Source of the DNA: Candidatus Latescibacterota bacterium | GTDB taxonomy: Bacteria; Latescibacterota; UBA2968; GCA-2709665 | Reading direction: 5' to 3' | Assembly (NCBI GenBank): GCA_965226795.1 | Contig: CBDDDZ010000002.1 | Span: forward strand, 64,001-128,000 | DNA length: 64,000 nt | Shown: positions 42,001 to 51,000 of the stretch, in pieces | Layout of the letters: every line of letters begins with the position of its first letter | Numbering within the stretch: the first letter of the stretch is position 1 | Program-made: the position numbers

Positions 42001-45000
42001 GACACAGGCAGCGCCGCGGTTCGGGTCGAACTGGCGGACGGCAGGCGGGATACGCATCTCTTTTCGCGGGACGGTTCGATCGAAGTCCGGGATCCCGATG
42101 GGGTTCCCATTGCGCTTTCAGGGCGGTTCGGGGTCGTACGCGAACGGGACGGAGAGGTGGCGCTTTACCTGGTGGAAGGGACGCGCCTGCGGTTTGGAGA
42201 CGCAGAAACGACACTTCCTCAAACCCATTTCGAAGCTCGGATCACGGCAACGGATGCCGATGCGGAGACCGTGTCGATCGACCGGGGCCTGCCGGAAGGG
42301 ATGCCTCTGGAGGGACGGTTGTGCCGCGTGGAAGCAGACGCCGGGGACACGGCCTATTCCCACGGGTCCGGCTACCGGGTTACGGCCGCCGTGGACGGGC
42401 GAAACGCCCGGCTTGTTCTTCAGCACGGGGATCCCCGGCTGGCAAGAGGGACGGTTGTCTCTGTCGAGGCCCCGGATATTCTGGTCTGCGACGTGCCGCT
42501 TGCGTTTGCCTGGGGTTTCAACAACAGCGGCGACAAGGGTGAATACAGAGGAAAGGTGCTGCGTACGGAGGACGGGTCGTTCATGTCCCGGATCGTCGAA
42601 CTGCTGGCGTTCAAAAAACTCCGGCTGGAATCGGTGGCCGGGCTGCGGGCCGGCAGCCGCTTCGAGATTCTGGACTTCAAGCCGGGCGATCGGATTTCGA
42701 TTCCGAATTCCGGGAGTAGATGCCTGGCGCGGCGAACCTGAAAACCGTTCGACGTCGGGCCGCGGGTTTGCCGCCGTGGGGGCGGATACGCGGCGCCGGG
42801 TTCCGGCATGGGGCCCCTTTTCCCTTGAATTTTCGAGATATTTCCATATTATGCGCGTGGTGCGTTGCCACGCGCTGCAACACGTGGGAAGGCAGACCGC
42901 GAGGCCGATGAGACACGGGAAATCGGCCGCCAATTCGGCCCGAATTAACCGGGAGACGGTCATGCAGCAAGCGCAGCCGGATTCACACCCTGAAGCGGAC
43001 GTGGGCCAGGAACGATGGGGCGTAACCGTGCGGGCGGTCGCCATCGGGCTTGGCGTGGCCCTTTTCATTCAGGGATGGGGCATTTTCTCCAGCCGGGTGA
43101 TCCGGTCGTCCGGCGTGACGTCGGGTTTTCTTTCGCCAGCCCTCTTCATTGCGATCCTGCTTGTACTGTTCGTCCTGAACCCCCTCCTGAAGCGGGTCGT
43201 GCGGTCCCGCGGGCTGAACCTTGCGGAGATACTGACGATTTTCGCGATGGGGCTGATGGGCGGCGCGCCGATCGCGGCATTGTATGCCTTTATAACAATT
43301 CCGTACTACCTGGCCACTCCGGAGAACCAGTGGGGTAACCTCCTTCACCCCCACCTGCCTTCCTGGGTTGCACCCCTCGACGTGGACGGCGCCGTTACGC
43401 TTCTCTTCAATGGCCTGCCAGGTGGTCAGGGTACGATTCCATGGGGTGCGTGGGTCGTGCCTATGTTCTGGTGGGGGCTTCTGTTCTGCGTTCTGGCTTT
43501 TGCCGCGGCTTCTCTTTCGGTGGTACTCCGAAAACAGTGGGTGGAACACGAGCGGCTGCGATACCCGGTCCTGGAACCGATCGTGGAGATGGCCAGGGGT
43601 TCGGATTCCAGCGGATGGTGGCCGCAGTTCGCCCGCGGAAAGCTGTTCTGGTTCGGTGCGGGGATCGCGTTCGTATTTATTTTCTGGAATGCGCTGCCAT
43701 GGATTTCTCCGGCCTTTCCCGAGATGCCGGTCCGGGGCAGGGTGTACGCCTTCTTCGGGCGGGATATGCCGCCGATGTTCAGCTATATAGACCCGTTTTC
43801 CATCGCGTTTTCCTATTTTGCAAATCTGGACGTGCTGTTCAGCGTCTGGTTCTTTTTCGCGGTGTTCGTGCTGGAGTTCGGGATTTTCAACCGGCTGGGC
43901 TACAGCATCGGCGGGCGCGGCGACCGGTACGGGTCCTACGACGCGGCGTCAAGCTGGCAGGGTCTGGGTGCGTTCTGCGTTTTCGTGTTGTTCGGCCTGT
44001 GGATGGCCAGGCGCCATCTGAAAGACGTGGCGATGAAGGCGTGGCGGTCGGACCATCCCGTGGACGATTCGCGGGAGATGTTGTCGTATCGCACCGCGGT
44101 TGTGGGGATAGTGGTGGGTATTGTATTCACGGTCGTGTGGCTGAATCGGGCGGGGATGGACTTGCAGATGGCGATTCCGCTGGTGGCGATGCTGTTCGTT
44201 CTCTACATCGGCGTCGCGCGGATCATCGCCGAGTCGGGCCTGTTGTATGTGCAGGGGCCGATGACGGCGCAGAGCTTTTCGGTGTATCTGCTCGGCGCCG
44301 AAGCGGTGTCGCCGTCGAGTCTGACCACGCTCCTGTTTTCCTATCCGATCCACGCGAATTCGACGTCGCAGATGTCGCATGTGGCCAAGGTGGCCGGACA
44401 GATCCGGGATCGGGGAAGGCGGCTGTTCTGGGCGGTCTGTCTGTCGTTCGTGGCGACGACCCTGGTCGTGATCATCGGGACGCTCTATCTGGGCTATACC
44501 GGCGGGGCCGAGAATTTCGGACACGGCTTTATCTGCGGGGGCGTGCACAATTTTCCGGATACCGTGAGCAAGATCAAGGAGCCGTTCGAGCTCGACTGGA
44601 ATCGGATTATGTTTTTCGGTATCGGCGCCGCGGTCATGGCTTTACTGACTTTACTCCGCTACCGGTTTCCGTGGTGGCCGATCCATCCGGTGGGGTTCGC
44701 CATTATGGGGACGGATCTGGTGAGGAATTTCGCACTGACGCTGTTTCTGGCGTGGTCCTGCAAATCGGTTATCCTTCGCGTGGGCGGGAATACGCTGTTC
44801 AGACAGGCGCAGCCGTTTTTCCTTGGCCTGCTGGTGGGGCACGTACTTGGAATAACGGGCGCGTTTCTCGTGGATATGTTCATGTTCCCCGGAGCCGGAC
44901 ATAGCATCCACCCGTGGATTGAATAGGCTGACGTACGAGGGCGAATGATGTTTAACGTAATCAAGAGGGTTCTTCTTGTTCTGCTGACGCTCGGCGTTCT

Positions 45001-48000: not shown

Positions 48001-51000
48001 CAAGCTGCCCAGGGACAATCGGCCTCCGTACCAGGGCGCGCTGGTGAGAGACCGGAACTGGAGGGGAATGCAGCCCTCCGTGCTGAACTATATGGAGAGT
48101 CATTTTGGCGGTTTCGCCCGGGTTGCGCCTCGGGCATTTTACATTTCCGAAAAGCGGGGGGAGCGGGCCTATATCGACTTTGAGGAGCCCGAAAGCGGCC
48201 GGCGGAGTTTCGCGAACGGGTTGCTGGGAGTAACGCCGGAGGAATCTGAGGTTATGGGTATGGACCGCCTGCTGACGGCTGGCCGGTGGTTCCGGGAAGG
48301 GGAGCGGCACGCGGTCATCCTGCCCGGAGAACTGGCGGAACTTGTTGGGATCTCTCCCGAGGACGTGGAGGCCGGCCGGGCGCGGGTGCGCATGTTGGGG
48401 GTGGAGCTTGCCGTTATCGGCATTCTGGACTCCAGGGCGGTCGACAGACTGGAGGATATGGACGACGAACGACTGACCCCCATCGACACCACGATGGAGA
48501 CCGCGGGCACGAGCGACTGGCGCAACCTGAGCCAGGATCCGAGGCTGATGGGAGCGGAGCCGATCGAGGCGTTCATTCACCTGGATACGAGCAATACGGC
48601 GCTGCTTCCGTACGAATTCGTCATTGAAATGGGGGGTACGCTCCGATCGATCGCGGTCACCGATTTCAGAGATGCGCAGGGCGGCCCGAGCCGGGACGTC
48701 CGGGGTCAGATCGAGGACTTTATGTCCCGGGTCGCACTGACGATGTTTGTGGGGATCGGCGACGAGGTGACGGTATACAGTTCCATCGGCACCACCTCGC
48801 TTTCCGGCATCGCGAATCTCTTCATCCCGCTGCTGATTGCCTCTCTGATCGTGCTGAATACGATGATGGGCGCGGTATACGAAAGGTTCCGGGAAATCGG
48901 CGTCTATTCAGCAGTGGGGCTGGCGCCCAGCCACATATCCGCGCTCTTCCTGGCAGAAGCCGCTGTGTTTGCCACGCTTGGGGCCGCGTTCGGCTACCTG
49001 ATCGGTCAGGCGCTGGTGATGTTGCTGTACGAACATGGGGCGCTGGGCGGGTTGTCCCTGAACTATTCGTCGTTGTCGGCGGTTACTTCCACGCTGCTGG
49101 TGATGCTGGCGGTGTTCCTGTCCACCCTCTATCCGGCCAGGAAGGCCGAGCAGATGTCCGTGCCCGACGTGACCCGGCGTTGGCAGTTTCCGCAACCGAA
49201 GGGTGACGAGTGGTTCTTTGATTTTCCGTTTACGCTGGCGGGCTCGGAAGCCCTTGGCATGTATACCTATCTGTTTCGTTCTTTCGAATCGTTCGGAGAG
49301 GGTTCTATCGGCAGGTTTGTCTCGCAGGACGTGAGTTTCAGGTCCGAGCCGCTTCCGGCCGGCAGGGGGTATAAGATCGCTCTGCGGATGTGGTTGGCGC
49401 CCTACGATATGGGCATCAGCCAGGACGTCCAGATGAATGCGATTCCCACGGGAGAACACGGTATATACCGCATAGAGGTCCAAATCCATCGCCTGAGCGG
49501 AGACGTGAACTCCTGGCAGCGGGTGAATCGAGGCTTCCTGAACGACATCCGAAAGCTCTTTCTGGTATGGAAAACAATGCCTCCGGAAACAAAGACGGAC
49601 TATGCCCGGCAGGGCGAGGCGGAACTGGAGACGTCGGCGGGCAGGGAGGTCGCGTCTTGAAAGCGCCAGCTGGTGTCCCGTCCCAGAAATATGTCACCAT
49701 TCATCCGCCGATTCATCCCGTCCGGCTACGTTGCCTGCGCTGAGCTTGTCGAAGTGCCTTCACTCGCCGACCTTGCCCAGGTCGTCTCGATCAGGCGCTG
49801 GTTCCTGAGCCTGTCGAAGGATGCCAGCCGGGCGACTCGGCGGCCGAAATTTCGACATTCTATTTCCGGGACAGAACACTAGGGAAAACGCGGTATGCCG
49901 AGACCTGCCGGGAAACGTGAAGTGGCGGTAGCCGGCACGAAGTCGGCGTTGCGCGGGGTTTCGGCGCGCGCCCTGAGCGTTGGCCTGGGTATTGCCGCCC
50001 TGCACAATTTCTGGAGCCTGCACTCGCTCTATATCATCCGGGGTTCATGGCTGAACCGGACGCACTTCCCCATGGGTGTGTTCGTGCCGTTCCTGATACT
50101 CGTCCTGTCGGCTCCGATTCTCCGGCGGTTCGTTCCCAGAATGGCGTTGTCCGGCCCGGAACTCCTGGTGGCGCTGTGTGCGGGCCTGGCGGGGGGCATG
50201 GTGCCGACGTTCGGTCTTTCCACGACCTGGATCGGCATGCTGGCGATCCCCGACTACCTTGCCACGCCCGAGAATATGTGGGGCGAGTACCTTCTGCCCC
50301 ATGTGCCCGGCTGGATGCTGCCATCCAACGCGCAAGGCGCCATGAGATGGCTCTTCGAGGGTTTGCCGCCCGGTGAGGGGATTCCCTGGGGCGCGTGGGC
50401 GGCCCCGCTCTTCTGGTGGACCGCGCTGCTCGGCGGGATGGCGCTGGTCTCTTTCTGTTCGGTCGTCGTGCTGCACCGGCAGTGGTCGGGGTACGAACGG
50501 CTGGCTTATCCCATTCCCGCAGTGGCCGCGGATATGGCGGAGGGGGCCGAGGGTAGAGGCGAGTGGGCCGGGTTGTTGCGGAACCGGTTGTTCATTGCGG
50601 GGATGCTTGTCGCGCTCACGATCAAGGTCTGGAACCTGATTCCGGCCTTTGTTCACGGATTTCCGATGATCCGTGTGTTTCACCAGCAGTTGTGGGTGCA
50701 CTTTACGCAATACTCACAGGTCCATGTGAGCCTGAATTTCTATACCATCGGGTTCGCGTACCTGACTGGCCTGGACCTGCTGCTGAGTATCTGGCTGTTT
50801 CATCTGTTTTACATTCTGGAGATCGCGGCTTTCGCCCGGGTTGGACTGGGGATTGCGGGATTCTCCGGCGGGGTGGTGTCCTGGCAGGGCGGCGGCGCGA
50901 TGATGTGCTACGTGGGTCTGGCGCTCTGGACTGCCCGCGGTCACCTCAAACGCGTGGTCCGCTCTGCGCTGGGCCGCGCGGGCGGAGCGAACGACGCGGA

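Follow-up and report, generated by a model that had tools for sequence, protein, structure and literature searches.

A giant type VII ABC permease with a peptidase-fold ectodomain and OPT-fold partners: a possible ATP-energised importer in Latescibacterota

Which process is served by a single protein chain that joins a peptidase-fold ectodomain to an ABC permease, and whose gene has DUF6785/DUF6784 membrane protein genes on both sides, is the question raised by a locus in a 64,000-nt stretch of a Candidatus Latescibacterota genome (the window; contig CBDDDZ010000002.1, positions 64,001 to 128,000). The giant gene is real. Its open reading frame (+) can be taken to start at 44945 or 44948 and ends at 49660, the ATG at 44948 giving 1,570 aa, and Pfam places a PA domain at residues 159-240, M28 at 283-394 and FtsX at 1293-1402 (Table 1). 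Three further full-length paralogues (55, 40 and 40% identity) bring the total in the genome to four, confirming the first-pass annotation, which had also recognized the union of a PA and M28 ectodomain with a MacB/FtsX permease. An assembly artefact or chance adjacency is ruled out by a gene order kept in many genomes and by a recurring gene fusion. Contigs from RNA libraries lie over the locus in 4 runs from 3 studies, a type of coverage that cannot show transcription. An N-terminal hydrophobic stretch is found in 106 of 121 giant-family sequences. No search with the neighbouring genes of 816 aa and 1,058 aa brought a clear match.

Table 1. Features of the giant locus in window positions; aa ranges refer to residues of the giant protein.
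Feature	Position	Strand	Basis and remarks
DUF6785/DUF6784 membrane protein, upstream copy	42959..44926	+	~655 aa; start codon uncertain; Pfam PF20581 6e-102, PF20580
Giant PA-M28 pseudo-peptidase / type VII permease	44948..49660	+	1,570 aa
N-terminal hydrophobic anchor or signal, aa 1-30	44948..45037	+	hydropathy
PA + M28-fold ectodomain, aa 60-520	45125..46507	+	predicted model, fold matches, residue counts
Beta-rich region (aa ~528-745) and three-helix stalk (aa 785-870)	46520..47557	+	model secondary structure
Three extra transmembrane helices, aa 865-948	47540..47791	+	hydropathy, conservation
Type VII unit, aa 990-1401	47915..49150	+	Pfam FtsX 5.7e-15; MacB 7.5e-9; YtrF 6.2e-8
Conserved cytoplasmic C-terminal domain, aa 1405-1570	49160..49657	+	no family
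DUF6785/DUF6784 membrane protein, downstream copy	49895..51862	+	~650 aa; Pfam PF20581 9.5e-100, PF20580

The predicted model of residues 60-870 reaches a pLDDT of 94, and fold searches again match it to PA-M28 aminopeptidases, TfR1 and GCPII. By structure, bacterial aminopeptidases are the best matches, ahead of TfR1 (VIA Z 29.3 to 1rtq, 28.3 to 2ek8 and 25.4 to TfR1). The earlier description as transferrin-receptor-like hence holds for the fold and the lost catalysis, but TfR1 is not the closest match. The canonical M28 residues H-D-EE-D-H correspond to Y295, E310, H342-F343, D382 and D481, and the intact zinc and catalytic set occurs in none of the 121 family sequences. Neither Glu at 342/343 nor His at 481 was found there, nor in 70 and 46 aligned rows from a more divergent collection that overlaps partly with the 121. 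The claimed remodelling of the zinc site stands, whereas the replacements thought to be invariant vary in the broader set: HF replaces EE in 62/121 sequences (His342 in 117, Phe343 in 64), Asp takes the place of the last His in 98, and position 310 is acidic (E/D) in 103. Measured against an active M28 peptidase, the PA and M28 folds are there, but the di-zinc ligands (H, D, E, D/E, H) and the catalytic Glu are not. The model and the residue counts support a peptidase fold that lacks the canonical site. TfR1, nicalin, nicastrin and GPAA1 likewise have a membrane-anchored PA and M28 fold that has lost this set; unlike them, the giant is bacterial, fused to an ABC permease and closest in structure to active bacterial aminopeptidases, and its M28 part is followed by the beta-rich region and three-helix stalk, which gave no family and lie outside the span of the fold matches.

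Sequence comparison relates the C-terminal half to MacB, YtrF and LolC, as previously noted. FtsX-type C-terminal helices and a coupling helix are present (Pfam 5.7e-15, MacB alignment, consensus VYERTREIGIYSSVGLAP), and a soluble stretch of about 275 aa lies between helices 1 and 2. The giant itself gave no direct Pfam match for the periplasmic core domain; its homologues gave MacB_PCD matches (best 8.6e-10). Judged from these alignments, the giant appears to be a type VII permease with FtsX helices and a large periplasmic core domain, arranged as amphipathic helix, first helix, core domain and FtsX helices with the coupling-helix motif. MacB, LolCDE, FtsEX, YbbAP-TesA and YtrEF share the four-helix unit, core domain and coupling-helix motif, and the hydrolase-fold periplasmic part recalls YbbAP-TesA. 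Unlike known type VII systems, however, the giant combines this unit in one chain with an ectodomain of 850 aa, three further helices and a cytoplasmic domain. The extra helices carry conserved ERL and HPAF motifs, lie outside the four-helix unit and are a candidate docking site. The cytoplasmic C-terminal domain has no Pfam or solved-structure match, and in fusion proteins it continues into DUF6785; a KA1 hit (E 0.11 in 1 of 47 members) was not relied on.

As in other type VII systems, the ATPase is LolD/MacB-like. The ATPases of the system form one clade (34 rows; SH-aLRT 99 in a quick tree) with intact Walker A, signature, Walker B and H-loop motifs, and two members are encoded in this genome. 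Operon context suggests that this clade is cognate to the giant. The giant stands without an adjacent ATPase because the dedicated one is encoded elsewhere, beside a small second FtsX permease; within the fetched flanks of 80 Latescibacterota-type loci it was not found once. The small FtsX-only permease is a candidate second half of a type VII dimer, and the two would probably form an asymmetric pair like LolC and LolE, although the second permease often lacks the periplasmic core domain, unlike in known systems. A PqqD-like protein, in which a PqqD domain was detected, and a putatively PsbP-like 300-aa protein are further partners that set this system apart from known type VII systems. The 300-aa protein has no useful Pfam or PDB match and a weak internal repeat (65%, E 6e-5); its nearest named Atlas cluster is DUF3805 at 0.82, a lead only.

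Also unlike known type VII systems, the giant has obligate OPT-fold partners. The model of g02510, encoded beside another copy of the giant, matches barley YS1 (7WSR) of the OPT/YSL family over its full length (Z 19.1, TM 0.61/0.68, 548 of 600 residues, 13% identity), the runner-up reaching Z 5.7. DUF6785 is a full-length homologue and would share the fold, since HHalign aligns it with the g02510 family at 96% over 563 columns. Profile-profile comparison alone links the two, HMMER giving no cross-match between these families; Pfam OPT (PF03169) was detected in 2 of 20 g02510-like members (best 7e-7) and in none from this genome, and a comparison with one true OPT sequence gave no match. The partners carry conserved acidic residues; in YS1 the core aspartates are Asp446, Asp490 and Asp494, and transport is proton-coupled. 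DUF6785 is present in 23 copies here, and a relative has as many as 40 matches. In contrast to YS1, a lone proton symporter, these partners are tied to another protein: in 225 genomes searched for DUF6785, it never occurred without the giant.

Co-occurrence extends to all parts. The giant family is found in 31 of 201 planctomycete genomes, in keeping with the minority reported before. Partners are confined to these 31, with g02510-like, DUF6785 and 300-aa proteins in 30 each, small FtsX (E<1e-22) also in 30, and the ATPase clade, like other partners, in 29–30; none of the other 170 genomes has the small FtsX, the ATPase clade or the 300-aa protein, and PqqD-like proteins occur in 29 of the 31 with 11 weak matches outside. 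In one family of Latescibacterota, the giant, DUF6785 and the 300-aa protein are jointly absent from ten genomes. The small FtsX, ATPase, PqqD-like and 300-aa proteins are encoded in operons with the giant, and the complete set of six core genes is clustered in 15 fetched loci (13 genomes), loci that were chosen partly for parts lying together; in the present genome all partner genes are found, but scattered. All four copies of the giant adjoin DUF6785 or a relative, as the first-pass annotation stated, the other three having DUF6785 and/or a g02510-like gene and one of them an ATPase upstream. In planctomycetes, the g02510-like gene is directly downstream in 20/20 fetched loci (17 genomes), again as claimed. 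The pairing said to hold always does so for 65/65 loci with >5 kb on both sides; among 80 Latescibacterota-type loci an OPT-fold gene lies anywhere in the fetched flank in 74, but within 500 nt in only 49. Giant and DUF6785 are even fused, with no stop between them, in 19 of 121 Latescibacterota genomes from 5 genera, at 49-80% identity across the junction; one such fusion protein has 2,122 aa. The fusions occur in a single family and may go back to one event, and related genomes are not independent observations. The core is single-copy and DUF6785 multi-copy, the 300-aa protein being single in 14/14 genomes that hold 1-40 DUF6785 matches. Thus, the proposed receptor-permease and transporter module was right about the permease and its OPT-fold partner but incomplete as a two-gene view; the giant is one of six core genes in a system that also includes DUF6785.

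We favour, at about even odds, an ATP-energised solute importer in which one motor serves many OPT-fold carriers. The type VII unit of the giant would pair with the small FtsX permease, as LolC does with LolE, and bind a dimer of the dedicated LolD-like ATPase. The OPT-fold proteins would supply the translocation path because type VII motors transmit force across the membrane without carrying substrate; such systems typically pass no substrates (PMC12646458). The g02510-like protein would be the constant partner and the DUF6785 paralogues exchangeable, substrate-specific carriers, following the logic of shared ECF modules, in which one conserved ATP module serves many scattered membrane partners (PMC7755397, PMC4820897). 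This likeness is organizational only: there is no homology, neither EcfT nor S-component subunits are found, and the membrane parts are FtsX-type permeases and large YS1-fold carriers instead of EcfT and small S-components. The peptidase-fold head may act as a non-catalytic receptor or lid, and the PqqD-like and 300-aa proteins as cytoplasmic adaptors. Many DUF6785 copies adjoin catabolic enzymes, and around 19 orphan DUF6785 genes most neighbours encode metabolic enzymes (PhyH plus Gfo/Idh/MocA 11/75 vs 173 of ~4,025 genes, an enrichment inflated by the clustering of catabolic genes in islands of this genome). Cargo would most likely be small organic nutrients (sugar acids, oligosaccharides, amines or peptides) differing by paralogue, although the hints conflict, PqqD, OPT and M28 folds pointing to peptides and neighbouring genes to sugars and small solutes. 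Against this reading, characterized type VII systems are extractors, exporters or activators rather than importers (PMC12646458), and OPT folds need no ATP motor, since YS1 acts without partners as a homodimeric elevator driven by protons (PMC9691689).

No description of such a system was found in the literature searched. More tentatively, the motor may drive or gate elevator-type carriers, dozens of them exchangeable, as a main route of nutrient uptake in Latescibacterota and in part of the Planctomycetota, with a head that may be a bacterial relative of nicalin or nicastrin. Primary (ABC) and secondary (ion-driven) transport are regarded as two distinct designs. If true, a type VII motor tied to OPT-fold carriers by operon, co-occurrence and fusion would cut across this division, extend type VII function to import, give DUF6785 a function and account in part for how abundant uncultured sponge symbionts feed. 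With its eight-gene operons and naturally fused protein, the system is directly open to study by expression and cryo-EM.

It is improbable, though deserving of weight, that the core is a biogenesis or quality-control machine that inserts, folds, activates or removes OPT-fold proteins working as lone proton symporters, its ectodomain acting like nicalin, which serves in the multipass translocon of eukaryotes. When sequence matches among solved structures are ranked over the core M28 segment, nicalin comes first (45.5 bits vs 35 for a wild-type aminopeptidase), its loop aligns there without a gap, and nicastrin also matches; a single-copy core with many clients suits a chaperone no less than a motor. 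Scored across the full PA-M28 domain, however, nicalin is third by sequence and bacterial aminopeptidases score far higher, and a stable one-client fusion and a fixed g02510 partner better suit a working complex. Among the fold-search matches listed, nicalin and nicastrin are absent, which does not exclude them. Export or envelope work is similarly unlikely, with a Lol/MacB-like extractor of lipoproteins, lipids or secreted peptides whose OPT-fold proteins would move a precursor outwards while the PqqD-like protein binds the peptide. The canonical type VII functions (PMC12646458), the LolC/E-like asymmetry of giant and small FtsX, the PqqD domain and the Ig-like and LysM inserts in some family ectodomains would fit, but precursor peptides or modifying enzymes do not recur in annotated loci, DUF6785 has expanded beside catabolic enzymes, and the sole solved OPT-fold match is an importer.

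Poorer still are the prospects of enzyme-coupled transport, in which the remodelled site (E310, H342, D382, D481, R477) would bind a metal and cleave or ligate substrate. GPI transamidase GPAA1 and glutaminyl cyclase use the M28 fold, the acidic 310, His342, acidic 382 and acidic 481 occur jointly in 80/121 sequences, R477 is kept in 115/121, and the solved aminopeptidase variant 2anp has the same Glu-to-His change and presumably keeps weak activity. Yet neither a Glu of the EE pair nor the last His survives in any sequence, and the site drifts in divergent branches, His342 (46/70 rows of the divergent set) to N, Q, R, Y or S and position 310 to R, T, Q or S. A sensor, modelled on BceAB signalling with BceS, would use the ectodomain and OPT-fold proteins to detect a ligand and signal to cytoplasmic partners, and is as doubtful: the conserved cytoplasmic domain, two soluble partners and force transmission by type VII systems would suit it, but no kinase or regulator recurs among annotated neighbours and up to 40 carrier paralogues beside enzymes better suit uptake. 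No archaeal names were seen among the giant homologues, and one DUF6785 Atlas cluster is 85% archaeal.

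We show here that the giant protein of this window, a PA-M28 ectodomain joined to a MacB/FtsX permease, belongs to a larger set of genes than the two-part module of receptor-permease and transporter proposed in the first-pass annotation. The pairing with an OPT-fold partner stands, but planctomycete loci also encode a small FtsX-only permease, one or often two LolD-like ATPases, a protein with a PqqD domain, a 300-aa soluble protein and, occasionally, a TPR protein. The six core genes, the giant and its g02510-like partner included, are clustered in 15 of the loci fetched (13 genomes), a count that gives no frequency because these loci were partly picked for clustering. 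The unbiased test is co-occurrence across the same 201 planctomycete genomes, 31 of which encode the giant. The g02510-like protein, DUF6785, the 300-aa protein and the small FtsX are each present in 30 of these 31 and in none of the 170 without a giant, with the small FtsX counted at E<1e-22, generic FtsX matches being common for weaker scores. PqqD-like proteins occur in 29 of the 31, with 11 weak matches in genomes outside. Within Latescibacterota, the giant, DUF6785 and the 300-aa protein are all missing from ten of ten genomes of one family and all present in the 14 other genomes tested. Since related genomes are not independent, no p-value is attached to this co-occurrence. Here the core is scattered: the genome encodes four giants, two g02510-like and 23 DUF6785 proteins, one 300-aa/PqqD pair and one small FtsX adjoining an ATPase. 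An ATPase had been noted beside just one of the four giants, and it does lie beside the paralogue g04254; the system ATPase is, however, also encoded elsewhere, next to the small FtsX. Both have intact motifs, and in a quick tree both fall in the clade of the operon ATPases, apart from other LolD-like ATPases of this genome, which answers the worry over a missing ATPase. The small FtsX ranges from about 220 to 690 aa because of an insertion that lies between helices 1 and 2 (L131:5096-6595, L132:5892-7790, L160:5771-7837). Near the small FtsX/ATPase pair (L134:2513-7204) lie genes that we take, by appearance, to be of Cas5/Cas8 type and a WYL-domain regulator.

The partners of the giant are OPT-fold proteins. 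A g02510-like model (pLDDT 82) matches barley YS1 with a Foldseek E of 1.9e-9 and Z 19.1 across 548 of 600 residues (next match Z 5.7), and DUF6785 aligns to the g02510-like protein over 563 columns at 96% probability; the link of both to OPT by sequence comparison is faint. In each of 20 planctomycete loci chosen from giant matches, the gene immediately downstream of the giant is g02510-like. Of 80 Latescibacterota-type loci, 49 have an OPT-fold gene within 500 nt and 74 within the flank, as do all 65 with long flanks. Two single ORFs (P0144 and L169, 84% identical) combine a giant with DUF6785/6784, which shows that both can function within a single chain; the junction is open, with no stop, in 19 of 121 genomes from five genera of one family, and the fusion may be one old event. 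Each part of the system has known relatives; for the architecture as a combination we found none, nor any description of it in the literature searched.

We consider it about an even chance that the system is an importer whose single ABC motor would energise or gate many substrate-specific OPT-fold carriers, with the dead peptidase head acting as receptor or lid. Four observations lead to this reading. Type VII systems typically transmit force, not substrate, across the membrane (PMC12646458), and YS1 is described as an importer of the elevator type, coupled to protons and built of core and scaffold domains (PMC9691689). In 14 of 14 genomes the 300-aa protein has a single copy, with DUF6785 counts that range between 1 and 40. 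Finally, 19 orphan DUF6785 genes here have 75 same-strand neighbours, mostly oxidoreductases, PhyH dioxygenases, TIM-barrel isomerases, heparinase-like enzymes and amidohydrolases; PhyH and Gfo/Idh/MocA account for 11 of these 75 and for 173 of the roughly 4,025 genes called in the genome, a contrast that the clustering of catabolic genes inflates. Whole-genome totals are 76 PhyH-family and 97 Gfo/Idh/MocA matches. The likeness to ECF transporters with shared modules lies in the logic of one motor for many carriers (PMC7755397, PMC4820897). The system could instead be an assembly factor for OPT-fold carriers, which we regard as unlikely, and export or envelope work is no likelier.

By its sequence the giant carries the marks of a type VII permease and lacks those of an active M28 peptidase. 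Three further full-length paralogues occur in this 5.4-Mb genome (identity 55, 40 and 40%), and close relatives carry the name Latescibacterota. The family comprises 412 proteins among 8,000 scored candidates, or 1,446 representatives of clusters when fragments are included (E<=1e-30), and is present in 111 of 121 genomes of its own phylum and 31 of the 201 planctomycetes. Hydropathy indicates an N-terminal anchor followed by helices, three of them at about 865-948, a single one at 993-1011 and three more at 1285-1397. In this topology residues 30-865 and 1012-1285 would lie outside, with 1405-1570 on the inner side. The model of residues 60-870 (68 sequences) has a pLDDT of 94; its segment 60-520 has structural matches in PA-M28 aminopeptidases (Z 29.3 and 28.3), TfR1 (25.4) and GCPII (23.3), which do not extend over the beta-rich and helical-stalk regions that follow. 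Sequence comparison links the C-terminal half to MacB (7.5e-9), YtrF (6.2e-8) and LolC (0.011), and the final 165 residues are conserved with no family assigned. Of 23 long homologues scanned, five hold inserted Ig-like repeats, LysM or rubredoxin, and one more a weak zinc ribbon. An insertion around residue 360-380 occurs in 31 of 120 homologues. Giants of 2,770-3,050 aa (L119:7194-15527; P0124, P0125, P0129) contain bacterial Ig-like repeats within the ectodomain; LysM occurs in P0174 and rubredoxin in P0249.

The peptidase site was counted in the window protein and 120 full-length representatives, 30 of 150 matches being excluded as shorter than 1,350 aa. None of the 121 has the canonical M28 set, either Glu of the EE pair or the last His, and nine retain the first His. 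The site is remodelled as first proposed, but the new residues are common rather than invariant: His342 in 117, Phe343 in 64, Asp481 in 98 and Glu/Asp310 in 103. Among 72 more divergent, partly overlapping giants, His342 is found in 46 of the 70 rows that align there and Asp481 in 32 of 46. These counts make canonical peptidase activity very unlikely and a new catalytic site across the whole family doubtful; in the main branch the site may bind a metal or a ligand, as 80 of the 121 retain the acid-His-acid-acid combination. That the giant is a remodelled enzyme is improbable, as is a role as a sensor. The best solved-structure match is nicalin over the core segment and bacterial aminopeptidases over the whole PA-M28 domain; we treat kinship with nicalin as a lead.

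Features of the giant locus and its surroundings (window coordinates)
Feature	Position	Size	Remarks
Giant ORF	44948-49660	1,570 aa	Pfam matches PA, M28, FtsX
Intergenic repeat	49673-49883	~210 nt	Inverted ends; between giant and downstream DUF6785
Large flanking genes	39550-42741 and 51864-54359		Bound the DUF6785-giant-DUF6785 block
Beta-propeller/FG-GAP, heparinase II/III-like, BNR and Gfo/Idh/MocA genes	26785-33447, 55634-62113		

The repeat behind the giant resembles a MITE or REP-like element: it has 111 BLAST matches in the genome, 30 of at least 180 nt and only two of these inside called genes, and is missing at the same place in a relative's contig. The large flanking genes have no Pfam or NCBIfam match and belong to paralogue families expanded here (28 and 16 tblastn matches, respectively); the first shows a faint alginate-lyase match (E 0.018). 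The propeller, heparinase-like, BNR and Gfo/Idh/MocA genes of the surroundings suggest a polysaccharide-use region. Elsewhere, a four-domain BMC shell protein and a DHDPS-family enzyme are encoded downstream of the g04254/g04255 pair of giant and OPT-fold partner (L003:2077-4443; contig C5 of this genome near 738,000-740,400), and the third giant paralogue is directly followed by a fused S-adenosylmethionine decarboxylase/spermidine synthase gene (L002:12771-14054).
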